Counted from the stretch's first letter, positions 3,647 through 47,841 are shown. The stretch: DNA of 64,000 nt from an uncultured Actinomycetes bacterium (GCA_963786805.1 CAWBAK010000004.1:101388-165387), one strand, 5' to 3'. Translations and numbers: made by a program. The notes: generated by a model not told the origin, from the sequence alone.

Positions 3647-3708
3647 CGGCGGGAGTGTAGGCGCGGGTTGCCCGCCGCGCTAGCGACCTCGGTGGTAGAA
3701 AGGTCTCC

Positions 3709-4383
3709 ATGCACCCTTCCTCGGAGACGTCCGTGCGCGCCGCGACCGCCGCGATCGAGCTCCGAGGCGTGACGCGGCTGTTCGGCACCATCCCCGCGAT
3801 CGTGCGCGCGAACCTCCGCGTCGAGCGCGGCGAGGTCGTCGTGCTGCGCGGGCCGAACGGAGCGGGCAAGACCACGCTCCTTCGCATCGCGGCGACGGCC
3901 CTGTCCCCGACGTACGGCCGCGGGTCGATCCTGGGCTTCGACCTCGAGCGCGAGCGCGAGGAGATCCGCCTCCGGTCCGACCTCCTCTCGCACCGAACCC
4001 GGCTGTACGAGGACCTCAGCGCCGCCGAGAACCTCGCGTTCTGGTGCCGCCTCCTCGGCCTCGACGCCGCGGGGATCGATGCGGCGCTCGAGCGCGTCGG
4101 CATGCTCGAGGTCGCCGGCGAACGCGTCCGCGGGTTCTCGCAGGGGATGCGGCAACGGATCGCCGTCGCGCGAACGATCCTGCGGCGGCCGGACCTGCTC
4201 CTGCTCGACGAGCCGTACACCGGACTCGACGCCGAGGCTCGCCACGCGGTCGACGACCTGATCCGCGAGGCGGCACGCGACGGTCGTACCGTTCTCATGG
4301 CGACCCATCACCCGGCGCCCGAGGCACTCGCACATCGCGAGCTCCACGTCGACGGCGGACGGATCGTCCGGGAGGCGCCGTGA
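3709..4383 (+). CDS. ccmA: Heme exporter ATP-binding protein CcmA (ABC ATPase)
   Basis: Walker A motif GPNGAGKTT, an ABC signature, and the Walker B motif LLLLDEP. The gene is followed directly by ccmB with a GTGA start/stop overlap. Confidence 0.8.
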   Translation: MHPSSETSVRAATAAIELRGVTRLFGTIPAIVRANLRVERGEVVVLRGPNGAGKTTLLRIAATALSPTYGRGSILGFDLEREREEIRLRSDLLSHRTRLYEDLSAAENLAFWCRLLGLDAAGIDAALERVGMLEVAGERVRGFSQGMRQRIAVARTILRRPDLLLLDEPYTGLDAEARHAVDDLIREAARDGRTVLMATHHPAPEALAHRELHVDGGRIVREAP

Positions 4384-5090
4384 CCGCCCGCGCGGAGGAC
4401 GTCGCGGCCAGGAGCCCGGTCCCGTTCCTCCGACAGGCGATGGCGATCGCCGCCAAGGACCTGCGGATCGAGATCCGAGGGCGGCACGCGCTCGGGACGC
4501 TGCTCCCGTTCGCGGCCACGCTGCTCGTGTCGTTCGGGTTCGCGTTCGGTCCGGGCCGCGACATCCTCGAGCGAACCGCGCCCGGTCTGCTGTGGATGGC
4601 GATGCTCTTCGCCGCCGTGATGGCGGCGCGACGTTCGTATCAGGCCGAGACCGAGGACGACGCGCTCGAGGGATTGCTCCTCGCGCCCGTCGACAAGGCC
4701 GCCGTGTTCCTCGGCAAGGCGACCGCGGTGGCGCTCGAGCTGCTCGCGCTCGTGGTCGCCGTGCTGCTGATGGTGGTCGTGCTGTTCGACCTGTCGCCCG
4801 GGAACCCGCTCGCGCTCCTGGCGGCGTTCGCGCTCGGCACGGTGGGACTCGCCGCGGTCGGCGGGTTGTTCGGCGTCGTCGCCGAGGCCGAGCGCACGCG
4901 CGAGGCCGTGTTCCCGATGCTCGTGCTGCCGCTCGTCACGCCGGTGCTGATCGCCGGCGTGCGCGCGACCGACCTCGCGACGACGGGTCAGGCGGGCGAG
5001 GCGGCGCAATGGCTCGGGCTGCTCCTCGCGTTCGACATCGTGTTCGTGTCGGTCGGCATCCTCGTCTTCGGCCATCTGATGGAGGACTGA
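4380..5090 (+). CDS. ccmB: Heme exporter permease CcmB
   Basis: A polytopic TM protein lying between ccmA and ccmC. The GTG start at 4380 is preceded by the SD sequence ggaggcgcc and overlaps the ccmA stop codon. Confidence 0.7.
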   Translation: MTARAEDVAARSPVPFLRQAMAIAAKDLRIEIRGRHALGTLLPFAATLLVSFGFAFGPGRDILERTAPGLLWMAMLFAAVMAARRSYQAETEDDALEGLLLAPVDKAAVFLGKATAVALELLALVVAVLLMVVVLFDLSPGNPLALLAAFALGTVGLAAVGGLFGVVAEAERTREAVFPMLVLPLVTPVLIAGVRATDLATTGQAGEAAQWLGLLLAFDIVFVSVGILVFGHLMED

Positions 5091-5178
5091 GTGGACGTCG
5101 CGGCGCGCGGCCTCGGCAAGGCGACGTCCCGGAGCGGAGAGCGCGTGCTCGGCATCGCGGCGCTGGTCCGCGGTCGTC

Positions 5179-5829
5179 GTGAGCGCGACCCTCTCGCTGG
5201 TCGTCGCGCCGCCCGACGCCGTGCAGGGCGAGGTTCAGCGGTTGATGTACGTGCACGTGCCCGCCGCGTGGCTCGCGTACCTGTCGTTCTTCGTGGTGTT
5301 CGTGGCGAGCGTCGCGTACCTGAAGACGCGCCGGATCCGGTGGGACCGGATCGCCGCCGCCTCCGCCGAGATCGGCGTGCTGTTCACCGCGCTCGCGATC
5401 GCGCTCGGCGCGCTGTGGGGCAAGCCGATCTGGGGCACCTGGTGGACGTGGGACCCGAGGCTGACCACCACGGCGATGCTGCTGCTCATCTACCTGGCGT
5501 ACCTTGCGGTGCGCCGGGTCGTCGACAATCCCTCACGTCGTGCGCGCTGGGCGGCGGTGATCGGCATCGTTGGCTTCGTGGACGTGCCGATCGTGCACCT
5601 CTCGGTCGTATGGTGGCGATCGCTGCACCAGCAGGCGACGCTGCTTCGTGTCGGCGGTCCGGAGATCCACGGCTCGATGCTCGCGGCGCTGCTCGTCGGC
5701 GTCGTGGCCTTCACCCTTGTGTACGCGTATCTGATGACGCTCCGCCTCCGCGTCGGCCGTCTCGAGGAGCGCGCGGTGCGCGAAGCGCTCTCGCCGCAGG
5801 TCGGCGAGCTCGAGGAGGCCGACGTCTGA
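5179..5829 (+). CDS. ccmC: Heme exporter protein CcmC
   Basis: The conserved segment RLMYVHVPAAW and a Trp-rich WGTWWTWDPRL loop are present. The start is a GTG at 5179, and there is no canonical in-frame start upstream back to the stop codon at 5077. Confidence 0.75.
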   Translation: MSATLSLVVAPPDAVQGEVQRLMYVHVPAAWLAYLSFFVVFVASVAYLKTRRIRWDRIAAASAEIGVLFTALAIALGALWGKPIWGTWWTWDPRLTTTAMLLLIYLAYLAVRRVVDNPSRRARWAAVIGIVGFVDVPIVHLSVVWWRSLHQQATLLRVGGPEIHGSMLAALLVGVVAFTLVYAYLMTLRLRVGRLEERAVREALSPQVGELEEADV

Positions 5830-6180: not shown

Positions 6181-8755
6181 CTATGGCACCTGGACTGGGT
6201 CGCTGCTGTTGCCCGGGATGTCCGAGACCACCATCTGCTTCAGCAGGATCTTCGACGACAACCCGTTCGGGTAGAAGCCGTCGAGCGCGCGGAGGAAGTA
6301 CGGCGGCAGGTGCCGCAGGTGCATCACGACGTTCACCGTGACCTCCTGTCCACCGAACTGGCTCACGTCGAACAGATAGACGAAGGTGCGCTCGCGGTCG
6401 TCGTCGCCCTTCGTGTTGAACCGGTCGTCGTAGGGCTTCAGGGCGCCCATCGCCTGCTGGTCGGCGACGCGGATCTGGTTCTTCACGATGTCGGGTTGCA
6501 ACGACTGGTACGGCACCTCGATGAACGTTCCGTCGTCGTCGGGATCCCCGTCGGTCAGGATCTTCTGGAAGTTCGCGAGCCACGGGTCGCAGTCGTCGAG
6601 CGGGCTCGGCGTGAAGATCTGCACGGTCGAGTTCAACTCGGTGCCGAAGCGATCGGCGACCTCGATCGGGTCGCACGGCTTGAGGTCCTCCCTGGGGTTC
6701 GCGATCGTGCCCGACGAGCACGGCGACGCGATCCCGTTCGGGATCCGGCAGCTTCGTGGCCGGGTCGATCGGCGTGAGGCAGACCTCCTCCCCGTCCGCG
6801 GTCGTCGCCGACACCTCCAGCCACCACTGGCGCGCGAACGCGAACCCCGTCGGGAAGTCGTGACCGATGAACCCGGTCCGCACGGTGACCTCGGCGGGAA
6901 GGATGTCCGCCGACACGTCTCGTACGCGAACCTCGGCCTGGATCGTGACGCCCGAGTTGATGAGGCCCTCTCGCAGACCGAGCACCTCCGCCGTCGCGTC
7001 TCCCCCACCGACGCCGAGCCCCGCGTAGTGCCCCGGCTCGAGGTCGTAGTCCACGCCGATGAACGCGTGCGAGTGCAGCGTCCGATCGGGAAGGTCGAGG
7101 TTCCCCGGCGCGTCGTCGACCGCCGGCCCGGTGCTGGAGAGCATGTGGCACGTCGCGCACGGGACGCCGCCCTGGTCGTTGGCGAGATAGTCCTCCCACT
7201 CGTCGAACGTGGTCTGGAGCACGAGATCCTCGATGAGGCCGCTCCCGTCGACGTCGATCGCGTCGGCGATGCCGTCCTCGTCCCGGTCCACCTCGACGAG
7301 CTCGTTCTCGTCGAGCTTGCCGTCGCCGTCCTCGTCGTTCCCGCTCTCGTCCGCCTCCTCATCGCCGAACGGCGAGAAGCCGTCGCCCTCGATGTCGGCC
7401 TTCACGTTGTGGCACGAGCCGCACAGCTGGAAGGTGTTGAGCTCGTTCGTCATGAACCCCTGCGCGGTCTGATGGTCGGGAACCGGGAGCGGCGGATCGC
7501 CGCCGAGCGGCGGCCCGAACACCGTGCCGAAGTCGCGGTCGCCGGCTCGGCCGACCGGGAAGTCGTCCTGGCCGCCGCGGAGCTCGCCGGGGATCTCGCT
7601 CACGGAGTGGCAGGTCCAGCACGTGATCCCCTCGGAGACCACCGGGGCGCCGCCTTCCCCGGGGAGCGGGAAGGTGTCGTTCGGGGTGATCTGCATCCCG
7701 ATCGGCGCATGGCAGTTCGTGCAGAGCGCCCCGATGTTCGGGTCGATCTGGAGCGCGAGCGCGGTCTGCGCGACCGTCGTCGGACTGGTCTGCGCGACCG
7801 AGTGGACCGCGAGGTTCCACTCGCGAACGATGTCGCTGTGGCAGTCGGCGCACTGGCCCGAGTCGGGGAACGCCTGCGCCTCTTCGGCGAAGACCTTGTT
7901 GTCGATCCCGAGGACGTCTGCGACGTGGATCGCGATCGCCGCGCCGAGCGCGACCGCGAGCGGCAGATGCAGGAGCTTCCAGCCCTGCAGCATGCGGTGG
8001 TACCGCTCCTGCTTGGGCTCGCGGCCTTTGTAGCGCTCGAGCCGTTCGGCCAGCGCCCGGAGCTCCTGCCACGAGGCCTGCTCCTGGACCGCGAGCGTCG
8101 CGGCTCGCCCGTCGAGCTCGGCGACCTTGGTCTTGCCTCGCAAGAGCTCGTCGGCCAGACGCCGAAGCTCGTCGGAGGCCCCGGCGAGCGTCTTCTCGAT
8201 CTCGACCTCGATCTGCTCGCGGCGCGACCGAGTGTCCTTGAGCGAGAGGTTGCCCACCTTGCCGGGGATCCCGCGCGGAACCGTGACGTAGACGATGCGC
8301 CACGCGATGCCCGACACGACGAGGACGACCAGGATCGCGAGCGTGATCTTGCCGGTCGTGATCCGAGAGTTGATCGGATAGAGCCACCAGTGCACGACGA
8401 TCGCGAACGTCGCCACGAGGCCGAGCCAGACGTGCGCCTTGAGCCAGGTCATCATCGTGCCGGGCAGGTGCTCCTGCAGCACGCGCCGGCGTTTGCGCGC
8501 CGAGTAGAACGCGGTGAGGAGCATCAGCACGACGGCGATGAGCCCGGTTCCGGCGAGGAGCAGGAACGCGGCGCCCGCGTCTCCGCCGTCGTCCTGCGCC
8601 GTCTTCAGCATCGACAGGGCGAGCGCGACGATCGCTCCGCCGATCAGGCCGGCGAGGATCATCCACGGCCAGGGGCGCTCCAGCAGCTTCCTCGGCCGCT
8701 CGGGCTGCACGCCCGGCCTGGCGCGAGGACCCTTCGGCTTGGTTGCCTTGCTCAC
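6181..8755 (-). CDS. Membrane-anchored pentaheme c-type cytochrome. N-terminal TM helices and a coiled-coil region are followed by five CxxCH motifs and Asp-rich Ca-binding-like repeats. There is one apparent frameshift near 6700-6740.
   Basis: Heme-binding motifs CADCH, CTNCH, CWTCH, CGSCH and CATCH. Asp-rich repeats include DEDGDGKLDENELVEVDRDEDGIADAIDVDGSG and DGDPDDDGTF. The probable start is GTG 8755 (VSKATKPKG...), which overlaps the upstream gene's stop codon (GTGA). The C-terminal 150 aa continue in the frame of ORF 6181..7362 (NSTVQIFTPSPLDDCDPW...SSDPVQVP), whereas the original frame runs on into Arg-rich nonsense. Confidence 0.7.
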
Positions 8756-10529
8756 GCCCCGCTCTTCTTCATCTCGAGCCCGATGAGGACGTCGTTGCGA
8801 CCGAACACCTCGACGGGGTCGACGCGCATCGCCGCGCCGACCGGGCAGGCGTGCACGCAGGCGTAGTAGTCGTAGCCGGCGCACAGGTCGCACTTCACGG
8901 CGAGCTTCTGCTTGATGCCCTCGGTCGGATCGGCCTTCGCGTCGCGCTTGCGCGGGATGATCTTCGAGAGGATCCCCTTCGCGCGCTCGTCCTCGATGTC
9001 GTGCATCTGGATGTTGTCGTACGGGCAGCGCTCGGCGCACGCGCCGCACCCGATGCAGTTGTCCGGGACGATGCGGATCTCGCCGTCGGGCTCGCGGACG
9101 ATGCCGTTCACCGAGCAGAGCAGGCAGACCGGATCCTCGCAGTGACGGCAGGCCGAGGGGAACAGCAGGTTGCCGAGCTGCAGCCCGCTTCGCTCCAGGC
9201 GCGAGTACCCATGGCGGCGCCCGCAGGCGTCGACGCAGTTGTCGCAGTCGATGCAGATCGCGGTGTCGATCAGCAGGACCTCGTGACCCTGCATGACGCC
9301 GCGGTCCAGGAGGCCCTCGAGCGACATCATCTGCGAGCTGGCGCGGTCCTTCGGCGGCGGCCGCAGCGCCGAGCCGCCCATCTGCAGCAGGCCCTCCTCG
9401 GCGCGCGTGGCCTCGTCGATCAGCGTGCGCCGCAGCTCCGGGCTCTTCTCGAGGAGGGCGACCACGACCGCCCCGGGGATCGTCACGACCTCCGAGCGCG
9501 TGTTCGCGCTCACCGTGGCCGACTGGAGCTGGTTGAACAGCAGCGCCACGCCGCCGAACGCGTCGCCCGAGCGGAAGTACTGCAGGACGCGCTCCTCGGC
9601 GCCGAACGTGCGGGCGACGCGCAGGAACCCCGACCGCACCAGGTGCAGGTCGCCCGGCTGGTCGCCCTCGCGGAACACGACCTCGCCGGGCATGAGCACC
9701 CGGAACTGCGCGCGGTCGAGCAGCTCTCCGACGGCGTCGTCCGGCAGTCCGGCCAGGAGCGGCGCCGTCCGCGCGTGCGTCCAGACGGCCTTGCGACGGT
9801 ACAGCTCGTCCATCGTGCTCTTGAATCTGGCCGCCTCCCGCATCAGGCGGAACACCGTGGCCTTGGGGAACTCGAGGACCGTGGCGGAGTGCACCGCGGT
9901 GATCGTGAACGGTTCCTCCTGGTTGCCCATCACGGCCATCTCGCCGTGGAACGATCCCGGGCCGAGCAGCAGGATCCGCGCCGCCTCGCCGAGCCCCAAC
10001 GACGCGACCTGCTCGACGTTGCCGTCGACGATGACGAACATCCGCTCGTGGAACTCGCCCTCACGGACGAGGACCTCGCCTGGATCGAGGCGGCGCATCG
10101 TCGTCGACAGGAGCGCGCGTCGGATCGCCGGCTCCTCTACGCCCTCGAACAGCGGCAGCGTGGTCAGGTGGCTCGCCAGCGCGTGGAGCGTCCAGCCGGA
10201 CCCCGAGATGTTCGGCCCGACCTGCAGGGGCATCTCGCGGTCGGGCGCGACCTCCTCGACCTTCATCTTGTTGTAGAGCACGATGTCGGCGCGGTGCAGG
10301 TCGGCCGGACAGACCGGCACGCACTGCTGGCACTGGGTGCACGCCTGCACGAACTCGATCACGCTCGCCGAGACGATCCGCTCGTCGAGCACCGCGTGGT
10401 TCAGCTCGGCGATCGTCACGTGTCGCGCTTCGGGAAGCGGGCACGCGAGCAGGCAGTCGTTGCAGCCGATGCAGGCCATGATCTCCCGCTCTGCCTCGTT
10501 GCGGAGTGAGTCGAGGAAGTCGACCTGCA
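8752..10529 (-). CDS. Iron-sulfur protein with two N-terminal [4Fe-4S] motifs, two cyclic-nucleotide-binding (Crp-like) domains and a C-terminal multi-cluster ferredoxin domain
   Basis: Cys motifs CIGCNDCLLACP and CTQCQQCVPVCP; two cNMP-binding domains (FGEMAV..., FGGVALL...); then CIDCDNCVDAC, CRHCEDPVCLLC, CIGCGACAERCP and CDLCAGYDYYACVHACP. The ATG at 10529 (MQVDFLDSL) is preceded by the SD sequence ggaggcgcc and overlaps the upstream stop codon (TGATG). Confidence 0.7.
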
Positions 10530-11789
10530 TCAGGGCGCCTCCTCGAAGCGCATCGTGACCTCGCCGAATCGGACCTCGGCGCCGGGCTCGAGGGCCTGCT
10601 CGCGGTTGGCCTCGAGCACCCGACCGTTCACGGCCGTGCCGTTCGTGCTGCCGAGGTCGGTCACGCTCCACCCGGTACCGCGCGGCTCGAGCTTCGCGTG
10701 ACGCCAGCTCACGGTGCCCTCGGAGATCGAGATGTTCGCGTCGGGATCGCGGCCGACGACGACCTCGGCCGCCGCGAGCGCGAAGGTCTGCTCGGCGAGC
10801 GGCCCCGACTCGATGCGGAGCCGGAACGCCTTCGGCGCCGCCGGCTCGGGGACGGCGACCGGTGGAGGCTGAGGAGCGGTGACCGGCGGGGGTTGCGGGG
10901 TCGCGACCGGCTCGGGGGTCACCGGCGGCGGCTGGGGTGTCACGACCGGCTCGGGAACGACCGGCGCGGGAGTGGCGACGGGAGCGGGAGCGACCGCGGG
11001 CGGGGCTTCGGCGACGCGGCCTCCGACCGAGCGGAACGTGAGGTCGGTCTCGCCGACGTGCACGACGTCGCCGTCGCGAAGCGGGTGCGGCGTCGTCACG
11101 AGCTGCGCGTTCACCCAGGTCCCGTTCCGGCTCCCCAGGTCGCGCAGGTACAGCGCGCCCTCGTGAAGCGTGATCTGCGCGTGCGTGTAGGAGACGGCCG
11201 GATCGTCGATGGACACCTCGGCCTCGGGGTCACGCCCGAGCGAGATCTGCGAGCCGAGGAGCTCGTACCGGCGGCCACCGCCTTCCAGCGCGCCCGAGAT
11301 CCCCGTCCCGGGGATGCCGGTCTCCTCCAGCGACTCGGGGCGCACGAACAGTCCGGAGACGGCCGGACCGACCGGCGAGGGCGGGATCTCCGGCGCCGGC
11401 TCGGCCGAGACCGATGGCGCAGGCGTGGGCGCTGGCACGGGCGCCGGTTGCGGCTGCGCGAACGCGATCTTCGTGCTGCCGACCCGGATCGTGTCGCCGT
11501 CGGCCAGGGTCGTCGGCGCCGTGATCTGCTGCTCGTTCACGAACGTGCCGTTGCGGCTCCCCGCGTCGGCGACCGCGTAGACCTCACCGATCAGGCGCAC
11601 CTCGGCGTGCGCTCCCGAGACCATCGTGTCGGCGAGCACCAGGTCCATCTCGGGGCGCCGGCCGATCCGCGTGAGCGCGCCGAGCTCGATCGACTGGCCG
11701 CCCTCGACCGACAGCGTCGCGTTCGGACCGGCCTCGCCGCCGGTGGCCGCCGACGGCGGATCGAGGACGGCGACCGGTGACGCGGCCAT
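10530..11789 (-). CDS. Protein with three FHA domains separated by Pro/Ala/Val-rich linkers
   Basis: Three segments have the FHA signature (...IGRRPEMDLVLADTMVSGAHAEV...GSRNGTFVNEQ; ...LGRDPEAEVSIDDPAVSYTHAQI...GSRNGTWVNAQ; ...VGRDPDANISISEGTVSWRHAKL...GSTNGTAVNGR). The start is ambiguous between 11789, 11831 and 11969; 11789 avoids overlap with the upstream gene. Confidence 0.65.
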   Translation of the reverse strand: MAASPVAVLDPPSAATGGEAGPNATLSVEGGQSIELGALTRIGRRPEMDLVLADTMVSGAHAEVRLIGEVYAVADAGSRNGTFVNEQQITAPTTLADGDTIRVGSTKIAFAQPQPAPVPAPTPAPSVSAEPAPEIPPSPVGPAVSGLFVRPESLEETGIPGTGISGALEGGGRRYELLGSQISLGRDPEAEVSIDDPAVSYTHAQITLHEGALYLRDLGSRNGTWVNAQLVTTPHPLRDGDVVHVGETDLTFRSVGGRVAEAPPAVAPAPVATPAPVVPEPVVTPQPPPVTPEPVATPQPPPVTAPQPPPVAVPEPAAPKAFRLRIESGPLAEQTFALAAAEVVVGRDPDANISISEGTVSWRHAKLEPRGTGWSVTDLGSTNGTAVNGRVLEANREQALEPGAEVRFGEVTMRFEEAP

Positions 11790-11796
11790 CGCGGCC

Positions 11797-13224
11797 TCAG
11801 GGGGCGCGGGCAGCAGTGCCGGAGCGGCCATCGCGGCGACGGGTTGCGCGACCGCACGCGTGAGCGGCGAGACCGCGGCCGGCGAGCGGAGCAGCCGCGA
11901 GTACGTCGGCACCGCGCCGCCGAGCGCGATGCCGCGCGTCGCCTGCATCTCTCCGCGCGTCGCCGCCATCCACGCCGGGAGGTCGAACGCCGGGATCGAG
12001 CAGCCGGTCGCCGACGGCGGAGATGTCCGTCTGGTCCTCGATGAGCTTCTTCAGGCGCAGGCCGTGGCGGCGAACCTGCTCGGAACGGTGCCCGAGGAGG
12101 ATCGCGCCGACGAGATGACCGTCGTTCAGCACCAGCTTGCGGTACGCGATCGTTCCCTTGCCGCGCGGGAGGTCCGCGATGACGCGATCGCCCTCGCGCT
12201 CGATCGTGCGACCGAGCCCGGCGAAGTCGAGGTCGTACAGACGCGTCGCGTTGTACATCACGCCGACGTCGTACGAGACGTTCCCGCCGGCCATGTTCGT
12301 CCCTGCCACGCGGCCCTGCAGCCGCGCCGGCTCCCACAGACCGAGACCGCGCTTGTCGCCGACCTGCGGGTCGTAGACCTCGGCGACGTCCCCGGCCGCG
12401 TAGACGTCCGGCAGGTTCGTCCGCATCCGGTCGTCCACCGGGATCCCGCGGTTGACCGCGACGCCGGAGTCCTGCAGGAACCCCGTGTTCGTGCGGATGC
12501 CGATGGCCGCGCAGACGAGCTGCGTCCGCACCTTCTGGCCGCTGTTCTTGAGCTTGACCTCGTGGACGTGTCCGTGCCGGTCGCCGATCACCTCGGCGAT
12601 CTCCTCGTCCATCCGAAGGTCGCACCCGAACGCACGCAGTCGCGACGCGACGAGGTCCGAGCCCGTCTTGTCCAGGACGCCCGCCATGAACTCGCGCCCG
12701 CGCAGGATGTAGGTGAGGTCCGCGCCGCGCGCGCGCAACGCCTGCGCCCACTCGAGCGCGAGCGGCCCGCCCCCCACGACCACCGCCCGCTTCACCCGTC
12801 CGGACCGCAGGTCCTCCATGAACGTGCGCGCGTCCTGCATCGTGCGCATCGTCATCACGCCCTTGAGCTCGGCGCCGGGGAAGGGCGGCGGGTTCGGCGC
12901 CGATCCCGACGCGATGCACAGGCGGTCGTACGAAACGGGAACACCACCGCTCGCGAGGACGACCCGGCGGTTCGTCGTGTCGATCGCCGCGACCTGCGCG
13001 AGCAGGCGGCCGATCGAGTTCCGCGCGTAGAAGTCCGGCGGAACGGCGAACAGTTGGTCCTCGCGGAGCTCGCCGATCAGGTAGTTCGTGAGCGCCGCTC
13101 GGTAGTACGCGGCGTTCGGGTCGTCGGCGATGATCGTGATGCGGCCGTCGTGATCGCGGCGGCGGATGTACTGCGCGGTGGTCGTGCCGGCCGCACCGTC
13201 ACCGATGATGACGTACTCGGTCAC
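11797..13224 (-). CDS. FAD-dependent pyridine nucleotide-disulfide oxidoreductase (NAD(P)H:acceptor reductase family)
   Basis: N-terminal GxGxxG (VIIGDGAAGTT) and a second dinucleotide fold (VVVGGGPLALEWA), plus the AAGD motif. The GTG start at 13224 is preceded by the SD sequence gagggggag. The Arg-rich C-terminal ~70 aa look unlike protein, so the true end may lie elsewhere, possibly through another indel. Confidence 0.65.
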   Translation of the reverse strand: MTEYVIIGDGAAGTTTAQYIRRRDHDGRITIIADDPNAAYYRAALTNYLIGELREDQLFAVPPDFYARNSIGRLLAQVAAIDTTNRRVVLASGGVPVSYDRLCIASGSAPNPPPFPGAELKGVMTMRTMQDARTFMEDLRSGRVKRAVVVGGGPLALEWAQALRARGADLTYILRGREFMAGVLDKTGSDLVASRLRAFGCDLRMDEEIAEVIGDRHGHVHEVKLKNSGQKVRTQLVCAAIGIRTNTGFLQDSGVAVNRGIPVDDRMRTNLPDVYAAGDVAEVYDPQVGDKRGLGLWEPARLQGRVAGTNMAGGNVSYDVGVMYNATRLYDLDFAGLGRTIEREGDRVIADLPRGKGTIAYRKLVLNDGHLVGAILLGHRSEQVRRHGLRLKKLIEDQTDISAVGDRLLDPGVRPPGVDGGDARRDAGDARHRARRRGADVLAAAPLAGRGLAAHACGRATRRRDGRSGTAARAP

Positions 13225-13336: not shown

Positions 13337-14243
13337 CTAGGGCTCGGTGGAGGGCTCGGCCATCGCCGCTTCTGCCTCGGCGATGAGCTGCTGCGCGGTC
13401 CCCCGCTCCTGCCCGAACGGCGCGGCCGCCAGGTACGCCTCGAAGGCCTCGATCGCCTCCTCGGGCCGGTCGAGCCCCCGGAGCAGGATCGCCCCGCGGA
13501 TGAACAGGGCTTCCGGGTACCCGGGCGCGGTCTCGAGCGCCCGGTCGACCGACGCGAGCGCCTCCTCGGGCTGGTGGGCCGCGTACAGGATCAGGCCGAT
13601 GTGCGCGTGCGCCTCGGCGTCGTCGGGATCGAGCTCGAGCGCGACCGCGTACTCCTCGAGGGCTTCCTCGACCCGGTCCGCGTCGAGGTACCGGTGCGCG
13701 AGGTCGAGCCGCGCCGCGAGGTCGTTCGGATGGTCGCGGACCCGCTGCTCGAAGAACGCGAACGGGTCATCGGAGGCGGCCGGCGCCGCGTCGAGGGCCG
13801 CCGGCTCGGCTTCGCGCAGCAGCCCGGTGACCGCGACGGCGACCACGGTGGATGCGAGGAGGATCGCGACCGCCCACGGCGGCACCCGCCTCGTCGTCCT
13901 TCCCGGTTGGTCCGGGGGCCCGACCTGCAAAGCGACGGCGCCGCCATCCGTCGCGACGGCCGGGCGCGGCGAGCGCCGTCCGTCGATCGCGCGAAGGAGC
14001 CGGGCGATGCGACTTTCCGTATCGCCGCGGAGCCTGTGGTAGTCGGCGTCCTCGAGCACGCCCGGAGGAGTGCGCCTCCTCGAGGTCGGCGAGCGAGCGG
14101 AGCAGTGCGACACGCCGGTCCTCCAGCGGATCGGCGAGCGGCTCGATCGGGACGGGATCTCGGCGCCGGAACCCCGCGGTGACGCCCGCGGCGGCGACGG
14201 CGGCGAGCGCGGCGACGGCCAGGGCCGCGACGAACGGGTTCAC
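13337..14243 (-). CDS. TPR-repeat cytochrome c biogenesis accessory protein (CcmI/CycH/NrfG-like) with two TM helices. There is an apparent frameshift near 14050-14075.
   Basis: The N-terminus, a TM helix and DRRVALLRSLADLEE lie in ORF 13767..14243. The sequence continues in ORF 13337..14113 (LEDADYHRLRGDTESRIARLL..., a second TM helix, then the TPR-like EALEEYAVALELDPDDAEAHAHIGLILY...). The junction contains an odd local palindrome, ctcgagcacgcccggaggagtgcgcctcctcgag. Confidence 0.55.
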
Positions 14244-14692
14244 GCGCCTTCCTCAAGGGAACGGAGGTCGACGTCGATGCGGCGCCGCTCGGCGTCCGAC
14301 ACTTCCGTCGGCTCGGCGCGCGGCCGGCGACGGACGACCAACGCCCACGCACCGATGCCGAGCGCCACTGCGGCGACGGGGATCGCGAACGGCAGGAGGC
14401 TCCTCGGCTCGAGCAGCACCCACTCCCCGTACCTCGCGACGAAGAACGCGCGCACCTCGTCTTCGGTCCGGCCCGCGCGGAGCTGGCCCTCGACCTCGGC
14501 GCGCATCTCGCCGGCCAGACGCGAGGGCGAGTCCGCGACGGACAGGTTCTGGCAGACGGGGCAGCGCAGGCCCGCCGAGATCGCCTGCGCACGGTCCTCG
14601 ATCGACGCCGGCTCCCCGCCGCCGCGAGCGAGCAGCGCCGCCGCCACGATCACCACCGCCGCACCGGCCACGAGCAGCCATGTCCGCTTCAT
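14240..14692 (-). CDS. ccmH: Cytochrome c-type biogenesis protein CcmH (CxxC heme-handling protein)
   Basis: A signal/TM anchor followed by LRCPVCQN (the CcmH CxxC motif) and a second C-terminal TM helix. The start overlaps the ccmG stop (ATGA), and the stop overlaps the CcmI-like start. Confidence 0.75.
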   Translation of the reverse strand: MKRTWLLVAGAAVVIVAAALLARGGGEPASIEDRAQAISAGLRCPVCQNLSVADSPSRLAGEMRAEVEGQLRAGRTEDEVRAFFVARYGEWVLLEPRSLLPFAIPVAAVALGIGAWALVVRRRPRAEPTEVSDAERRRIDVDLRSLEEGA

Positions 14693-15276
14693 GCGGACAC
14701 CTCGGTTCGCAGCGCGCGGTCGATCTCCTCGGTGAGCCACGAGTACGTGACCTCGCCGATGGTCTTCGCGGCGATCGTGCCGTCGGGGCCGATCACGAAC
14801 GTCTCCGGCACGCCGAACACGCCGTACGCGATCGCGGTCCGCGACCCCGGATCCATGACGAGCGGCCAGTCGCCCTCCTTCTCGCTCGCGTACTGCAGGG
14901 CGGTGCCCTCCCCGTCCTCGAAGACCACGCCGACGAAGACCACCCCGCGCTCGCGGTATCGCTCCCACGCAGCGACGAGCGCGTCGTGCTCCGCGTGGCA
15001 CTCGAGGCACCACGACGCCCAGAAGTTCACGACGAAGACCTGGCCCTCGGTCGGCCCCGAGATGTCGCCCTGCCCGCCGAGCTCCGGAAGCGCGAACACT
15101 GGTGCGCGGTCGGAGATCAGCTCGCTCGGCAGCTCGCGCGGATCGCGTCCGAGCCCGGAGGCGAGCAGGATCGCGAACGCGATGACCGGCACGAGGGTCA
15201 GCACGATCACCCGCCCGCGCGAACGCCGCGGACTGGGTTCCTCCTCCTCGCGCTCGAGGAGATCGACGTCGCTCAC
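14689..15276 (-). CDS. ccmG: Thiol:disulfide interchange protein CcmG/DsbE (thioredoxin fold)
   Basis: WCxxC active site (FWASWCLECHAEH) and a TM anchor. The GTG start at 15276 is preceded by the SD sequence gaggagg and overlaps the ccmF stop (GTGA). Confidence 0.75.
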   Translation of the reverse strand: MSDVDLLEREEEEPSPRRSRGRVIVLTLVPVIAFAILLASGLGRDPRELPSELISDRAPVFALPELGGQGDISGPTEGQVFVVNFWASWCLECHAEHDALVAAWERYRERGVVFVGVVFEDGEGTALQYASEKEGDWPLVMDPGSRTAIAYGVFGVPETFVIGPDGTIAAKTIGEVTYSWLTEEIDRALRTEVSA

Positions 15277-17291
15277 ACGCGCACCTCCTCGCGCGTCTCC
15301 GCGACCTCGGCCGGAACCGACCTGCGCCTCGGAGGCGATCGGGACGGCCAGGCGGCAACGAGCCCTCCGAACGCGATCACGAACCCGCCCACCCACAGCA
15401 GCCCGATCCCGGGGTTCACGAAGAACCGGAGCGACGCGGCCGGACCCTCCGCATCGACCGAGACGAGCGATGCGTAGAGGTCTCGCATCCCGTTCCACGG
15501 CGTGCCGACCCGGATCGACGGCGTTCCGATGGGCTCCGACGAGCCCGGATAGAGGTTCAGCGAGGGCTGGAGCCTCGCGACCTCCTCGCCGGTCTCGGCG
15601 TCGAACGCGGTGATCCGGGCGACGATCACGCGCCGGTGCGCCTCCTCGCGAACGTTCAGGTCGTCGAGCCGGAGCTCGTAGCCCTCGACGCGGGCGCGAT
15701 CGCCGACGCCGAGCGTGAGCTCGCCCGAGGCATCGCCGAGCGCGGCCCACGACACCCCGACGAGCGCGACCAGGATCCCGAGGTGCGCGACGAGGCCTCC
15801 GTACAGCCTTCGGTTCCGCGTGATCGCGGCGCGCGTCGCGACGCCCCACGACGTGGCGTGCGCGCGGCGTTGAGCGCGAACCCCGCGGACCATCTCGGCG
15901 ATCGTCGCCGTCCCGACGAACGCCGCGAGCCCGAACACCACGATCGCCGCCGTGCCGGCTCCGGCGAGCGCGAACACCACGGCGACCGCCGCCGCCGCCC
16001 ACGCCGGCACCTGCAACCGCCGCGCGACCGCCGACAGCGACGCCGCGCGCCACGGCAGGAGCGGCCCGATCCCCATGAGGAACAGCAGGAGCAGCGCGAC
16101 CGGGAGCGTGTTGCGGTTGAAGAACGGTCCGCCGACGGAGACCTTCTCGCCGGTCAGCGCCTCCACGATCAGCGGATAGATCGTCCCGACCAGGACGGTG
16201 AACGTGACCGCCAGCAGCAGGACGTTGTTGCCGAGGAACACGCTCTCGCGCGACAGCGGCGTGTCGAGCGTCGACTCGGCCCGCAGCGCGTCGCGCCGCC
16301 AGGCGATCAGCCCGAAGCCGCCGACGAGCACGAGCGTGAGGAACGCCAGGTACATCGGCCCGACGATCGACTGCGCGAACGTGTGGACCGAGGACAGGAT
16401 GCTCCCCCGCGTGAGGAACGTCCCGAGCACCGTCAGCGAGAACGTGCCGATCACGAGCGCGAGGTTCCAGACCTTCAGCATCCCGCGGCGTTCCTGCACC
16501 ATCACCGAATGCAGGAACGCGGTCGCCGTGAGCCACGGGAGCAGCGCGACGTTCTCGACCGGGTCCCACGCCCAGTAGCCGCCCCACCCGAGCACCCCGT
16601 AGGACCAGAGCGCGCCGAGCGTGAGCCCCACCGCCAGGAACGTCCACGCGGCGAGCGTCCACCGCCGCGTGATCCGGATCCAGTCATCGCTCACGCGTCC
16701 GGTGATCAGTCCCGCGATCGCGAACGCGAACGGCACGGTGAACCCGATGAACCCCAGATAGAGGAACGGCGGATGCGCCGCCATCAACGGATGGTTCTGC
16801 AGCAGCGGCAGTGGCCCGTTCCCGTCGGCCGGCGCCGAGGCGAGCGTCGCGAACGGCGTCGTCGGCCCGAGGACGAGCAGCAGGTAGAACGCGACGACCC
16901 CGTACATCGCCGCGAGCGCCCACCCGAACGTCTCGGGGCGCCGCGCGCGGAACCGGAACGCGACCGCGGCGAGGTACCCGCCGAGGACGAGGTTCCACAG
17001 GAGGAGCGAGCCCTCGTCGGCCGACCACAGCGCAAGGACCTTGAAGAACGTCGGCGTCGCGATGCTCGAGTTCGAGGCGACGTAGCGGACCGAGAAGTCG
17101 TTCGTCAGCAGGGCGACGAGCATCGCCACGTTCGCGACGAGGACGAGCGCGAGCACCGAGTAGGCCGTCGTGCGCGCGCTCTCGAGCATCGACGCGTTCC
17201 GCCGGCGAACGCCCATGACCGCGACGGCGCCCCCGTACAGCGCGAGCGCGAACGCGATCGCGAGCGAGACCGTCCCGACGAACGCGGCCAC
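15273..17291 (-). CDS. ccmF: Cytochrome c-type biogenesis protein CcmF (heme lyase subunit)
   Basis: A 672-aa polytopic membrane protein with the WGGYWAWDPVEN WWD motif and a CcmF-type C-terminal domain. The frame is intact. Confidence 0.85.
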   Translation of the reverse strand: MAAFVGTVSLAIAFALALYGGAVAVMGVRRRNASMLESARTTAYSVLALVLVANVAMLVALLTNDFSVRYVASNSSIATPTFFKVLALWSADEGSLLLWNLVLGGYLAAVAFRFRARRPETFGWALAAMYGVVAFYLLLVLGPTTPFATLASAPADGNGPLPLLQNHPLMAAHPPFLYLGFIGFTVPFAFAIAGLITGRVSDDWIRITRRWTLAAWTFLAVGLTLGALWSYGVLGWGGYWAWDPVENVALLPWLTATAFLHSVMVQERRGMLKVWNLALVIGTFSLTVLGTFLTRGSILSSVHTFAQSIVGPMYLAFLTLVLVGGFGLIAWRRDALRAESTLDTPLSRESVFLGNNVLLLAVTFTVLVGTIYPLIVEALTGEKVSVGGPFFNRNTLPVALLLLFLMGIGPLLPWRAASLSAVARRLQVPAWAAAAVAVVFALAGAGTAAIVVFGLAAFVGTATIAEMVRGVRAQRRAHATSWGVATRAAITRNRRLYGGLVAHLGILVALVGVSWAALGDASGELTLGVGDRARVEGYELRLDDLNVREEAHRRVIVARITAFDAETGEEVARLQPSLNLYPGSSEPIGTPSIRVGTPWNGMRDLYASLVSVDAEGPAASLRFFVNPGIGLLWVGGFVIAFGGLVAAWPSRSPPRRRSVPAEVAETREEVRV

Positions 17292-17292
17292 C

Positions 17293-17699
17293 TCAGCCGA
17301 CCTGCGCGGGGGAAGGCGTCTCGCCGGCCGCCGGCGGCCGGTACTCCTCGCCGTGCTTCACGAGCATCGTGTCGAGTGGAACGCGCCGTCCGCGCCATAG
17401 GTGCCTTCGAGGACCACGCCCGTCCCGTCCTGGAACAGCCCGGGCGTCGCGCCATCGTGGACGACCGTCATCCGCGTCGTGCCGTCGGTGACCACGAAGT
17501 TCACGATGCCGGAGAGGGTGTGCACCGATCCCGGCACCACCTGCCCGCCGAGCCGCAGCTGCTCGCCGGGTGCCGGTTGCTGTTGCAGCAGCTCGGTCGG
17601 CGTCACGTAGTAGACGAGGTTCCCCGAGAGCGCCCTGGTCCCGACCCACGCCAGGCTTCCGGCGATGAGGACGAGCAGCACCACGACCCGGAGGCGCAT
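17293..17699 (-). CDS. ccmE: Heme chaperone CcmE. A 1-nt frame change near 17385 moves the conserved C-terminal tail into another frame.
   Basis: MRLRVVVLLVLIAGSLAWVG (TM anchor)...GGQVVPGSV...VVHDGATPGLFQDG... lies in ORF 17358..17786. The conserved tail MLVKHGEEYRPP (compare LAKHDENYTPPE) is found only in ORF 17293..17649, which ends immediately before the ccmF start. Confidence 0.65.
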
Positions 17700-17845
17700 G
17701 GCCCCGACCCTATCGCGGGGCTTCGAGAACCGTCGAGGCAGCCCGAGCGCGGGTAGCGGGTCAAGCTGAGCCGCTAACCGCGTCAACTTCTGGCGCTGGT
17801 GGGTTCACACTGTCAGGGTGGCCGACCTGCCGGTAATGGGCTGCC

Positions 17846-28190: not shown

Positions 28191-31528
<3,338 letters not shown>

Positions 31529-31532
<4 letters not shown>

Positions 31533-33541: not shown

Positions 33542-33760
33542 GCGCCCGCGCGCCGCGCGGGACCCGTCGGCGTTCGTGGTTGCGATCCCTCACCTCCGGG
33601 GAAGTCCAGCGGTGCAACGGTCGGCCGAGCTTGCGGTTCGACCCTACCGCGCTCCGCGCACGAGCATCCAGGGTTCGGACCGGCGAAATGGCCGCCGACC
33701 TGTGGATCCTCACCCGCCCGTGGCGAAAGCCAACGGCCGGCGCGGTATCTTCGAGGTCGA

Positions 33761-34747: not shown

Positions 34748-34935
34748 CCAGGCGGGCTGCTTACCGTCGTGATCACTCAGATGAGAACTTCCCGCACAGC
34801 GCTCGTCGGGTGGATAACCATCCGACTTGTTCCTGTGCTTGGGGCTTCGACCACGACATCGGTGGTTGCGACACCCTTCCTCCTCCGGCGGACGCCCGGT
34901 TGCGGGGTCGGTCCCGTCCAGAGAAGGATGCGAGG

Positions 34936-40802: not shown

Positions 40803-41390
40803 TCATCCGGGGCAGGGGCTCGCTCCGAATCCGCAGAGCTCGAGGCCCACGGTCTCGCGCATCCGCTCCACCAGCGGGAGGCGCGGGCGGAAGCTGAGGG
40901 CATCGTCGATGTCGACGGCAAGCGCGGGCGAGGCGTTCGGGTTGAACGCGAAGCGGTAGGTCACACAGCCGCCTTCGAACAGGTAGTAGCGGTTCGCCGC
41001 GAACCGCGGCGGCAGGCTGATCGGCTCCTCGAACCGGCGCGTCCCGGTCTCGTCGAGTCCCCGGACGCGACCTCGATCGCCTCGGACACGTCGCAGGTCT
41101 CGGTCAAGGGATACCCGGACCGCCTGGAACCCTGCCCGGTCCGAGTCGAGCCAGAAGCTCGCGCTGCCGTTCTCGATGTCCGATCCGCCGAAGATCCACC
41201 CGACGGGGAACTCCTCGATGCAGGGCAACAGGCTCGCGGTCGGGACGGCCTGCGCCGCGAGGATCATGCTCGGGTCACCCAACTCGCAGGTGACCTGATG
41301 GAACTGGCGCGACTCACACGCGGGAAGCACCGCGAGCGCGACTACGATCGCCGCGCACCACGACGCCCGCCGGCTCCAGCCGCGGATCAC
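40803..41390 (-). CDS. Putative lipoprotein or secreted protein (195 aa)
   Basis: The product begins VIRGWSRRASWCAAIVVALAVLPACESRQ.... The GTG at 41390 overlaps the upstream stop (GTGA). The upstream part of ORF 40803..42842 is Arg-rich antisense noise. Confidence 0.5.
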   Translation of the reverse strand: MIRGWSRRASWCAAIVVALAVLPACESRQFHQVTCELGDPSMILAAQAVPTASLLPCIEEFPVGWIFGGSDIENGSASFWLDSDRAGFQAVRVSLDRDLRRVRGDRGRVRGLDETGTRRFEEPISLPPRFAANRYYLFEGGCVTYRFAFNPNASPALAVDIDDALSFRPRLPLVERMRETVGLELCGFGASPCPG

Positions 41391-43081: not shown

Positions 43082-43106
43082 CGATCCTCCTGGGACTCGG
43101 CCGATG

Positions 43107-45578: not shown

Positions 45579-45690
45579 CGTTGCCTCCTCCTGCGGCGGC
45601 CCGGACGCGATCTGCGGGTCGGCCCGCCACACCCGGACAGGATGCGTTCCCGAAGCTGAGGCTGGGCTGAACGACCCTGAACGAGCGGGA

Positions 45691-47701: not shown

Positions 47702-47841
47702 CGTCGGCCTCGTTCCTCTCCCCGGCCGGCCATCTTCTCAGGGGTTCCTGAAAGCCGCCTGAACGCCGGCGCGCTTCCTTCAGCCCGGGTTCAGCGACGG
47801 TGGGACATCCTCGGATGACCAAGACACCGAGGAGGTGCGAC

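Follow-up and report, generated by a model that had tools for sequence, protein, structure and literature searches.

The closest published description of a gene set like the one analysed here is that of the ptd operon (PtdC/E/F/A), which is itself uncharacterised; the function of Ptd gene sets was called "completely unknown" in that description. In the AorABC enzyme, the polyferredoxin receives electrons from an FAD subunit (PMC10413684). Ferric-reductase-domain proteins are recognised by one HX13H motif on TM3 and another on TM5, a signature of two haems b (PMC5566968). The locus compared here with these systems lies in a window of 64,000 nucleotides from an uncultured Actinomycetes bacterium (GCA_963786805.1 CAWBAK010000004.1:101388-165387), and coordinates refer to this whole stretch of DNA.

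Gene 2 (8752..10530, minus strand) encodes a 592-aa polyferredoxin with an insert of tandem cNMP-binding (CNB) domains, as determined from its ORF, translation, Pfam and NCBIfam matches, and homologs. Its reading frame is intact. An earlier note on this DNA correctly located the gene, but its interval (8752-10529) ended one base short, as the ATG is at 10530-10528. The ATG overlaps the TGA of upstream gene 1 by one base (TGATG), and the TGA of gene 2 (8752-8754) overlaps the GTG start of gene 3 at 8755 (GTGA); these overlapping boundaries indicate translational coupling of the three genes. The N-terminus of gene 2 has no Tat or Sec signal, and its product is cytoplasmic. Full-length homologs (n = 631) have identities of 60-99%.

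Pfam models Fer4_7/9/10 match gene 2 with E ~1e-14 over two regions, residues 20-77 and 455-566. All six Cys motifs quoted in the earlier note are present in the translation: CIGCNDCLLACP (residues 20-31), CTQCQQCVPVCP (64-75), CIDCDNCVDAC (426-436), CRHCEDPVCLLC (461-472), CIGCGACAERCP (492-503), and CDLCAGYDYYACVHACP (547-563). They contain all 24 Cys of the protein, which is enough for six [4Fe-4S] clusters, and all 24 are invariant across 119 full-length homologs as well as 65 orthologs drawn from three phyla. The N-terminal 2x[4Fe-4S] module (10300..10479, minus strand; residues 18-77; matches to Fer4_7/10/8/17) has the ferredoxin pattern of two CxxCxxCxxxCP motifs, with a helical insert between them. 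Its eight Cys are invariant, and its PDB matches are of the PsaC/FwdG/HdrC type. The C-terminal 4x[4Fe-4S] module (8806..9276, minus strand; residues 419-575) is of the HycB/HydN four-cluster type, having 16 invariant Cys and aligning end to end with residues 5-172 of HycB (7z0s_B, E=5e-15). This module of 157 residues also matches HDCR HycB3/HycB4 and AorA (8c0z_C), and its NCBIfam matches are of the HydN/AegA/DmsB type. One deviation is seen in the HycB alignment, where the second motif is Cx2Cx4Cx2C with no Pro after it. The ORF, Pfam matches, and Cys motifs confirm the proposed ferredoxin-like protein with two cNMP domains between two-motif and four-motif Cys clusters, and the 24 invariant Cys and HycB-like module support its assignment to electron transfer, as a polyferredoxin. 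The insertion of a regulatory-type tandem CNB between the two-cluster and four-cluster modules is likewise supported.

Gene 1 (10530..13224, minus strand) encodes a Pyr_redox_2 NAD(P)H/FAD flavoprotein with three FHA domains (Pfam, NCBIfam). It is AorC/PadH/NirB-N-like; the flavoprotein ORF in the window matches PadH and NirB-N in NCBIfam, and the best PDB match of an ortholog from related locus L001 (80-82% identical) is AorC (8c0z_E, E=3.7e-36). All three FHA domains retain GR...SxxH...NG in the translation of the window. A 1-nt insertion near 11993 breaks the gene in the window into ORFs 11797..13224 and 10530..11969. In relatives it is unbroken (~870-886 aa), and it forms a single ORF in 60/60 loci.

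Gene 3 (6181..8755, minus strand) encodes a 5-TM domain, five CxxCH motifs, and a C-terminal beta-sandwich, as assigned from Pfam, AF2, and orthologs; the AF2 model has a pLDDT of 88.6. It carries an HX13H motif in TM3 (H107/H121) and another in TM5 (H262/H276; L001 numbering), which is the His pattern of the ferric reductase superfamily (HX13H, or HX12-14H, on TM3 and TM5), and the two motifs are predicted to hold two haems b. The four TM His are conserved without exception in 61/61 orthologs, each of which has exactly five CxxCH motifs. Matches to PF01794 Ferric_reduct (E=0.0059, 17.1 bits versus a threshold of 28) and DUF4405 (23.6 bits versus 26.7) are sub-threshold. The sole significant PDB fold match of the outer domain is pentahaem c552 (5ze8; TM-score 0.61 on target), and sequence similarity to c552 is marginal (E=0.041). 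In the window, gene 3 is broken by a 1-nt insertion near 6743. Both partner genes of gene 2 carry frameshifts, so the window may hold either a non-functional system or sequence errors.

Gene 2 is the middle of an obligate, conserved three-gene cassette. The flavoprotein-FHA gene is upstream of it in 55/56 loci, and the TM-cytochrome gene is downstream in 55/55. MAGs of Actinomycetota, Chloroflexota, and Myxococcota carry the cassette; the lineages concerned are heterotrophs of soil and groundwater, and no cultured organism was among the 80 best genome matches. Some organisms have genes 1 and 2 fused (1523-1622 aa). Next downstream of shorter CNB-CNB-ferredoxin relatives there is always a 233-265 aa protein; these proteins are homologous to the TM domain of gene 3 (E 6e-24 to 5e-20) and have both HX13H motifs, so a ferredoxin and dihaem-membrane pair is the conserved core. 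Pkinase genes occur within 6 kb in 22 loci, representing all three phyla, and locus L090 has three in a row after the cassette. This adjacency could partly be chance, because Ser/Thr kinases are numerous in Myxococcota, though less so in Actinomycetota.

The Actinomycetota cassette sits inside a cytochrome c maturation (ccm) cluster. Upstream ccm genes assigned by Pfam (13340..17804) are on the minus strand, the same as the cassette, and include ccmE (17361..17804), ccmF (15276..17357), and a TPR (CcmI-like) gene (13340..14239), together with a ccmG/H-type region. Their order matches L001, and they are collinear with L009 at 92% nucleotide identity. Downstream, divergent ccm genes (Pfam; 3661..5826, plus strand) include ccmA (3661..4380) and ccmC (5080..5826), separated by a gap sized for ccmB; this ccmA/ccmC arrangement is shared with L001 and L006.

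The two CNB domains of gene 2 are CNB-A (9796..10170, minus strand; residues 121-245; AF2 pLDDT ~80-95) and CNB-B (9406..9777, minus strand; residues 252-375). Pfam cNMP_binding (PF00027) matches in two stretches with E=1.8e-33 and 114.8 bits, well above the cut-off of 27.5 bits. By HMMER, AF2, and Foldseek, the pair aligns with and models as a PKA-R-like tandem; the PF00027 score, the AF2 model (unreliable at residues 385-592 of gene 2), and Foldseek matches to PKA-R/PKG tandems place both domains in the CNB fold. The term "Crp-type" in the earlier note was imprecise: no HTH family was found among the Pfam matches of gene 2, and in structure it is most like PKA/PKG tandems. Assignment as a Crp/Fnr transcription factor, which would have a C-terminal HTH after a single CNB domain, was considered and rejected: gene 2 has two CNBs and ends in a four-cluster ferredoxin. 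The NCBIfam CRP and FtrB matches cover the CNB part alone and are far below cut-off.

In canonical CNB domains, a phosphate-binding Arg of the cassette (R209/R333 in PKA RIalpha, R82 in CRP) contacts the cyclic phosphate, and the Glu of a Gly-Glu pair binds the ribose 2'-OH. The CNB-A cassette (9895..9945, minus strand; G196-A212, GEMAVMGNQEEPFTITA) retains the Gly-Glu pair G196-E197 (E in 61/65 orthologs), and the position of the Arg is occupied by E206 (ungapped) or F208 (gapped) in the HMMER alignment to PKA-R and PKG. E206 is present in 65/65 orthologs from three phyla, and 63/65 have F or Y at residue 208. G196, V200, and E206 are invariant in this cassette, and T209 is present in 43/65. 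The CNB-B cassette (9505..9555, minus strand; G326-A342, GGVALLFNQLQSATVSA) has Gly in place of Glu (G327) and Gln in place of Arg (Q336). Position 336 is R in 2/65 orthologs, and the ribose-Glu position in the 65 orthologs is A, V, L, G, or I, never E. The CNB-B cassette also differs between phyla. Neither CNB of gene 2 has the phosphate-binding Arg of a functional cAMP/cGMP receptor.

Among 150 library representatives, a canonical cassette occurs in 0/29 with the architecture of gene 2, and a canonical GE...R[ST]A occurs in one or both domains of 66/84 without the N-terminal dicluster. Cassettes are degenerate in 11/11 FHA-containing fusions. Judging from these sequences, the CNB module is a descendant of genuine cNMP-binding domains, still canonical in relatives, and is predicted to have lost cyclic-phosphate binding in the gene 2 clade. 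The Arg-to-Glu reversal at the phosphate site is conserved throughout this clade, and a cNMP_binding annotation cannot be taken as "binds cAMP."

We consider it somewhat probable (roughly 0.55) that gene 2 is the cytoplasmic Fe-S wire of a three-subunit, NOX-like transmembrane conduit, in which the CNB tandem would serve as scaffold or hinge and control would be exerted by FHA domains and kinases. The proposed pathway is drawn from homology, fusions, and synteny. FAD in gene 1, an AorC/PadH-type flavoprotein, would oxidise NAD(P)H, and the six [4Fe-4S] clusters of gene 2 would relay the electrons to the cytoplasmic-side haem b of gene 3. Electrons would then cross the membrane via two bis-His haems b, held by the HX13H motifs of TM3 and TM5, and be taken at the outer face by the five c-type haems and the c552-like beta-sandwich domain. 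An outer acceptor would be reduced, with a metal, a sulfur compound, a nitrogen oxide, or O2 as candidates. Between the two-cluster and four-cluster modules, the CNB tandem would now act as a hinge or scaffold that is either fixed or bound to a different ligand. The three FHA domains of gene 1, which bind phosphothreonine, may have taken over on/off control together with the Ser/Thr kinases often encoded adjacent to the cassette.

A more specific version of this proposal is tentative. The cassette could encode an analogue of NADPH oxidase, split into subunits and wired by Fe-S clusters, that exports electrons and is switched by Ser/Thr phosphorylation via the FHA domains, with the CNB tandem as a mechanical hinge making or breaking the wire between its two-cluster and four-cluster halves. 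In relatives with canonical cassettes, this hinge could put transmembrane electron transfer directly under cAMP/cGMP gating. This version would place a respiratory-type and previously unrecognised machine in monoderm soil bacteria and Myxococcota.

Among the other explanations, the one that survives best, although we think it unlikely, is that the CNB module is a receptor for a ligand other than a cyclic nucleotide, and that binding gates the wire by moving the two-cluster and four-cluster modules with respect to each other. Candidate ligands would be a nucleoside, a nucleotide that is not cyclic, or a side chain supplied by a partner as an "intrinsic ligand." In favour of this reading, purifying selection on the CNB-A cassette is strong, the charge reversal at its phosphate position is conserved, and the two Fe-S modules directly flank the tandem. 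Foldseek matches include "cAMP-independent" Trypanosoma PKA regulatory subunits solved with inosine or guanosine, whose altered cassettes bind nucleosides. However, the sequence points to no ligand, and the CNB-B cassette varies between phyla. Against the main reading, the strong conservation of the CNB-A cassette, with E206 in all 65 orthologs, argues for a specific role still played by its pocket, so "scaffold only" may be too weak a description of the tandem.

It is doubtful that the cassette senses redox for signalling instead of conducting electrons in bulk, with the state of its Fe-S clusters and haems read via the FHA/kinase and CNB modules. Signalling-type domains are unusually dense (three FHA and two CNB), and kinases adjoin the cassette. 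However, thirteen redox centres and a flavin in a continuous chain are far above sensor usage, the cassette has no obvious output domain, and cross-phylum conservation (60% for gene 2) is typical of core enzymes.

Gating of the ferredoxin by cAMP or cGMP, as proposed in the earlier note, is improbable. The note had suggested a class III cyclase-hydrolase fusion as the source of the ligand. That ORF is real (alpha/beta-hydrolase and Guanylate_cyc, E=2.8e-11; 34810..36273, plus strand), so the window does encode a class III cyclase, but its link to gene 2 lacks support: it lies 24 kb away with unrelated genes between, and no cyclase homolog was found within 6 kb at any of 79 related loci. In favour of gating, the CNB fold is clear, and canonical cassettes are kept in 66 of the 84 related CNB-CNB-ferredoxins without the N-terminal dicluster. 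The note had itself named absence of the cassette residues as the finding that would count against gating, and the Arg is lost from both CNBs and the ribose-binding Glu also from CNB-B, family-wide, with degenerate cassettes in all 29 representatives of this architecture. Least likely of all is reverse flow, in which the c-haems would oxidise an external donor and pass electrons inward to NAD(P)+ or a cytoplasmic acceptor: the cofactor chain is reversible in principle, AorABC and HDCR-type wires run both ways (PMC10413684), and the c552-like fold is described as low-potential in T. tepidum, but NAD(P)+ reduction is uphill from most external donors, the cassette has no energy-coupling subunit, and its hosts belong to heterotroph lineages.

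If the conduit proposed as the main reading is correct, it would provide a quinone-independent electron route from cytoplasmic NAD(P)H to the cell exterior in Actinomycetota, Chloroflexota, and Myxococcota. These lineages are abundant in soil and groundwater, and their extracellular or periplasmic electron transfer is little understood. The conduit would also be a natural protein electron wire controlled post-translationally by FHA domains and kinases, and relatives with canonical cassettes would be under second-messenger control.

The CNB tandem has the same fold and CNB-A/CNB-B order as PKA/PKG regulatory tandems (Foldseek E ~1e-18), and it resembles cAMP-independent trypanosomatid PKA-R in that the canonical cassette Arg is absent from both. 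Unlike those of PKA/PKG, the CNBs of gene 2 sit within an Fe-S protein that has no kinase-inhibitor sequence, and CNB-B lacks the Glu. Gene 3 resembles NOX, FRE, STEAP, and MsrQ/YedZ in its two HX13H motifs (TM3, TM5) and in the two haems b that these are predicted to hold, which would pass electrons outward from a cytoplasmic NAD(P)H/flavin donor. It differs from ferric-reductase-domain proteins in having five TM helices and a helical cytoplasmic insert of ~100 aa, in its sub-threshold Pfam match, and in carrying a covalently fused pentahaem cytochrome on its outer face. The donor in the cassette is a separate flavoprotein acting via a six-cluster wire, whereas theirs is a fused FNR-like domain. 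The outer domain resembles Thermochromatium tepidum c552 (5ze8) in fold, but in gene 3 this pentahaem domain is fused to a membrane anchor. The related MccSep polysulfide reductase was placed beside c552 by its authors in a structure comparison of multihaem cytochromes (bioRxiv 10.1101/2025.11.18.688581); the comparison made here is between gene 3 and c552. In contrast to MccSep/c552, no Sec or CxxCK motif was found in gene 3 orthologs, and a catalytic role of the outer domain is putative.

The C-terminal 157 residues of gene 2 resemble HycB, HydN, and AorA, given their 16 Cys and end-to-end alignment with HycB. As in the NAD-linked pairs AorC-AorA and PadH-PadI, the cassette pairs a flavoprotein with a wire, here adjacent or, in some organisms, fused, and gene 1 best matches AorC and PadH. 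Unlike AorA and HycB, the gene 2 wire has a CNB tandem inserted into it, carries one more dicluster, and is partnered with a membrane cytochrome. The cassette also differs from AorABC and HycB systems in having no catalytic W, Mo, or hydrogenase subunit. An AorABC/PadEFGHI-type enzyme was rejected as an assignment: the FAD and HycB-like parts are present, and the cassette has no gene for a W-cofactor/2-oxoacid catalytic subunit. The cassette works like the electron-input half of these enzymes and is not a member of the group.

The differences from Ptd are in gene content, domain organisation, and host range. Ptd has a porin (PtdB), a tetrahaem (PtdD), and a decahaem (PtdG) protein, whereas no porin, tetrahaem, or decahaem gene was found in the window, L001, or L003; compared by published description, the cassette is therefore at best a reduced Ptd variant. 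PtdF-like and PtdA-like parts form one fused protein in the cassette (gene 3). PtdC is described as flavohaemoprotein-like, whereas gene 1 is of the Pyr_redox_2 type with three FHA domains. Compared with PtdE, gene 2 adds the N-terminal dicluster, for six clusters in total, and has degenerate cassettes. Ptd taxa are marine, whereas the cassette comes from soil and groundwater members of Actinomycetota, Chloroflexota, and Myxococcota. Both, however, combine in one cluster a flavoprotein, a CNB and Fe-S protein, an FRD-like dihaem membrane protein, and a c552-like beta-sandwich pentahaem protein, and all four Ptd-type components, as identified by comparison with the published description, are adjacent here and in 55 of 55-56 loci. 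If the proposed conduit is correct, it would suggest a concrete function for Ptd-type gene sets.

Polyferredoxins carry electrons through chains of [4Fe-4S] clusters, and the polyferredoxin gene under study (gene 2) has a tandem of cyclic nucleotide-binding domains (CNB-A and CNB-B) inserted in its product. The open reading frame lies on the minus strand, from an ATG at 10530 to a TGA at 8752-8754, and encodes 592 aa; the earlier note, which had placed it at 8752-10529, ended one base short. Pfam confirmed, far beyond chance, the claimed architecture of two cNMP_binding domains (E=1.8e-33) with 4Fe-4S ferredoxin domains on either side (residues 20-77 and about 455-566). All six cysteine motifs that had been quoted were found in the translation. 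They contain all 24 cysteines of the protein, which is sufficient for six [4Fe-4S] clusters, and these cysteines are invariant (24/24) across 119 full-length homologs and across 65 orthologs from three phyla. At the N-terminus is a two-cluster ferredoxin module (dicluster) of a generic kind. HycB, a four-cluster ferredoxin (7z0s_B, E=5e-15), aligns end to end with residues 419-575; the HDCR wire subunits HycB3/HycB4 align there as well, and AorA does so less strongly. In both sequence and AF2 model, the two CNB domains look like the CNB-A/CNB-B tandem found in regulatory subunits of PKA and PKG; the model is good for residues 1-385, and pLDDT is <50 for residues 385-592 (linker and C-terminal ferredoxin).

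Database names for gene 2 are limited to "cyclic nucleotide-binding domain-containing protein" or [quoted passage not shown]. The "Crp-type" label was rejected in the sense of a Crp/Fnr-type regulator, because Pfam finds no HTH domain in gene 2. The possibility that gene 2 encodes a ferredoxin subunit exported by Tat for a periplasmic reductase was also considered and rejected; no twin-arginine or signal sequence is present at the N-terminus, and the partner flavoprotein is cytoplasmic.

Cyclic nucleotides are held by a phosphate-binding cassette, and its phosphate-binding Arg is missing from both CNB domains of gene 2; the lack of such cassette residues is what the earlier note had itself named as telling against its reading. 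The CNB-A cassette is GEMAVMGNQEEPFTITA, where the position of the phosphate-binding Arg is occupied by E206 in ungapped HMMER alignments to PKA-R and PKG, or by F208 in a gapped one. The CNB-B cassette is GGVALLFNQLQSATVSA, in which Glu is replaced by Gly and Arg by Gln. These positions were scored in the 119 close homologs and in the 65 orthologs, which come from Actinomycetota, Chloroflexota, and Myxococcota. In CNB-A, E206 never varies (65/65 orthologs), and residue 208 is F or Y. In CNB-B, none of the sequences scored has Glu at the Glu position, and two of 65 orthologs have Arg at the Arg position. The earlier proposal of an electron-transfer protein gated by cAMP or cGMP is thus supported in part: gene 2 encodes an electron-transfer protein in which a regulatory-type module is embedded, but not a canonical cAMP/cGMP receptor.

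When 1.84 billion representative proteins were searched with a profile, 868 relatives of gene 2 came back at E<=1e-30, and two CNB domains were detectable in 113 of the best 150. Among these 113, the state of the phosphate-binding cassettes splits cleanly with the N-terminal dicluster. None of the 29 relatives with the dicluster, the architecture of gene 2, has a canonical cassette, whereas among the 84 without it both cassettes are canonical in 35, one in 31, and none in 18; the canonical ones are of the type FFGEMSLISGRRRSATV / YFGEMALLTDQPRMATV. Because of this split, the CNB domains of gene 2 are, as judged from sequence, descended from genuine cyclic nucleotide receptors whose canonical binding determinants were lost in the dicluster clade. 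In CNB-A, the Glu that invariably stands in place of the Arg suggests that a different function has been retained. Foldseek matches of the CNB tandem include the cAMP-independent PKA-R of trypanosomes, in structures with inosine or guanosine, which sets a precedent for altered cassettes that bind non-cyclic ligands.

Gene 2 overlaps both of its neighbors, with TGATG upstream and GTGA downstream, which implies that genes 1, 2, and 3 are translationally coupled. Gene 1 (10530..13224, minus strand) encodes a Pyr_redox_2 flavoprotein fused to three FHA domains; in 60/60 loci it forms one fused ORF. Its NCBIfam matches are NirB-N (1.8e-60) and PadH (1.6e-57), and an ortholog from a related locus (80-82% identical) has AorC as its top PDB match (8c0z_E, 3.7e-36). 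AorC is an FAD/NAD subunit, and it supplies electrons to the polyferredoxin AorA (PMC10413684). The phosphothreonine-binding residues (GR...SxxH...NG) are kept in all three FHA domains.

Gene 3 (6181..8755, minus strand) encodes a membrane cytochrome of about 860-890 aa with five TM helices. Two HX13H motifs lie on TM3 and TM5, and their four His are conserved without exception (61/61 orthologs); each ortholog has exactly five CxxCH motifs. A pair of HX13H motifs so placed, on TM3 and TM5, marks ferric-reductase domains with two haems b (PMC5566968); scores against Pfam Ferric_reduct and DUF4405 are under threshold. The C-terminal beta-sandwich and haem domain has a sole significant PDB fold match, pentahaem cytochrome c552 of T. 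tepidum.

Relatives of gene 2 are encoded in 104 of 185,579 species genomes scanned, and the best 80 were retained. These 80 are all MAGs. Most belong to Actinomycetota, Chloroflexota (chiefly Anaerolineales), or Myxococcota (chiefly Polyangiaceae); a few are labeled Pseudomonadota, delta/Deltaproteobacteria, or unclassified. The flavoprotein-FHA gene is directly upstream of gene 2 in 55 of the 56 loci with sufficient sequence, and the TM-cytochrome gene is directly downstream in 55/55. Genes 1, 2, and 3 are a conserved, obligate cassette. In Actinomycetota, including the window, it is embedded in cytochrome c maturation genes, with ccmE, ccmF, ccmG, ccmH, and a TPR gene on one side (13340..17804, minus strand) and ccmC, ccmB, and ccmA on the other (3661..5826, plus strand). 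This is a complete system I split around the cassette, which suggests that the pentahaem protein is a principal Ccm client in these Actinomycetota.

The reading frames of genes 1 and 3 in the window are each broken by one single-base insertion relative to two independent close relatives apiece; the close relatives are intact, and so is gene 2. The insertion in gene 1 is near 11993 (window GATCCCGG; GATCC-GG in L005 and L009, two related loci), and that in gene 3 is near 6743 (window GGATCCCG; GGA-CCCG in L009 and L006, a third locus). Both lie inside the heptamer GATCCCG, of which the window has 66 copies. They may be systematic base-calling errors at a GATC-containing motif, or real inactivating mutations that led to pseudogenes. 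Elsewhere on the minus strand (28191..33589, 41387..43841, and 45231..47737), several long ORFs, running from stop to stop on the same strand and high in GC3, overlap one another by 60-400 nt. They may reflect more frameshifts of this kind or mere upstream ORF extensions in DNA of 70% GC.

Gene 2 is probably, from its homologies and gene context, the Fe-S wire of a conserved NOX-like transmembrane electron-transfer cassette. The observed side of this mechanism comprises cofactor-binding residues, homologies, gene fusions, synteny, and topology logic. NAD(P)H would reduce the FAD of gene 1, and the six clusters of gene 2 would relay the electrons to gene 3. There they would be carried across the membrane from the inner to the outer haem b and would reach an acceptor at the outer face by way of the five c-haems. 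The c-haem part of gene 3 is placed outside because c-haems require the outer face; positive charge is found on the N-terminus and the TM2-3 loop (YSARKRRR). We infer that the three proteins form a complex, and also which way the electrons flow, what accepts them, and what the CNB tandem does. Positioned exactly between the two-cluster and four-cluster modules, the tandem would be well placed as a hinge between them.

Fusions of these components occur in nature. In some organisms genes 1 and 2 are joined in single chains of 1523-1622 aa (P0253 and P0255 among the library representatives) with Pyr_redox_2, three or four FHA domains, Fer4, CNB, and Fer4, and the cytochrome gene is next. A separate large group (P0290, P0299, and P0334; ~800-1110 aa) combines a TrxR-like flavoprotein, two canonical CNB domains, and a HycB-like ferredoxin; these are candidates for truly cyclic nucleotide-regulated redox proteins. 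More distant CNB-CNB-ferredoxins of about 470 aa come from Latescibacterota, Gemmatimonadota, and Planctomycetota MAGs, according to cluster members and the L091 record. Both phosphate-binding cassettes are canonical in two representatives, P0275 and P0279; in P0284, from whose cluster L088 and L089 come, only one of them is. A protein of 233-265 aa is always encoded next downstream (L088:5882-8113; L089; L091:9001-11202; L092:3692-5835), and it is homologous (E 6e-24 to 5e-20) to the TM domain of gene 3, including both HX13H motifs. Because these short relatives always carry the gene 3-like protein, the ferredoxin and dihaem-membrane pair is the ancient core. Small c-type cytochrome genes are found close by.

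A fusion of an alpha/beta-hydrolase with a class III cyclase, which had been proposed to supply the ligand of gene 2, does exist in the window (34810..36273, plus strand; Guanylate_cyc E=2.8e-11). A tie to gene 2 was rejected, because tblastn with the window cyclase and hydrolase domains gave no homolog within 6 kb of the related loci (0/79). The commonest neighbors outside the cassette are Ser/Thr kinase genes (22/79 loci, all three phyla), and in Chloroflexota they often follow gene 3 directly on the same strand. Kinase genes adjoin the cassette in L020, L022, L030, L031, L032, L034, L052, and L053, and three stand in a row behind it in L090 (3137-16005), a locus separate from the 79. Some neighboring kinases carry PD40 or CBM9 extracellular domains. 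Phosphate-binding cassettes are degenerate in all 11 long fusions with FHA domains and the N-terminal dicluster; two more FHA-positive long representatives, in which the dicluster was not detected, have zero and one canonical cassettes. Flavoprotein-CNB-ferredoxin fusions without FHA mostly keep canonical cassettes. In the dicluster clade, cyclic nucleotide control may thus have been replaced by phosphothreonine/FHA control. In the window, an ORF that lies about 31 kb away from the cassette has an HRDIKPAN motif, like that of a kinase catalytic loop, at ~41815 (minus strand).

Full-text literature searches gave no specific account of the gene 2 architecture or the cassette apart from one preprint. 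Among published descriptions, that of the ptdABCDEFG operon comes closest; the operon's function is stated there to be completely unknown (bioRxiv 10.1101/2023.11.21.568154). In ptd, as here, a CNB + Fe-S protein (PtdE) is encoded together with a flavoprotein, an FRD-like dihaem membrane protein, and a c552-like pentahaem part with a beta-sandwich. The contexts of the short CNB-CNB-ferredoxins were considered as ptd operons and were not ptd-like on inspection, though the dihaem membrane partner is always present. The c552 fold class was set beside the catalytic polysulfide reductase MccSep in its authors' structural comparison (bioRxiv 10.1101/2025.11.18.688581), and the outer domain of gene 3 may by analogy therefore be catalytic; gene 3 has neither a Sec nor a CxxCK motif. 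A porin, a tetrahaem, and a decahaem protein are encoded in the ptd operon, and none of the three in the present cassette. Compared with ptd, the present cassette has PtdF-like and PtdA-like parts fused, FHA domains on the flavoprotein, and an additional dicluster and degenerate phosphate-binding cassettes in gene 2, and its taxa and habitats are different. By comparison with the published description, it is at best a reduced, rearranged ptd variant.
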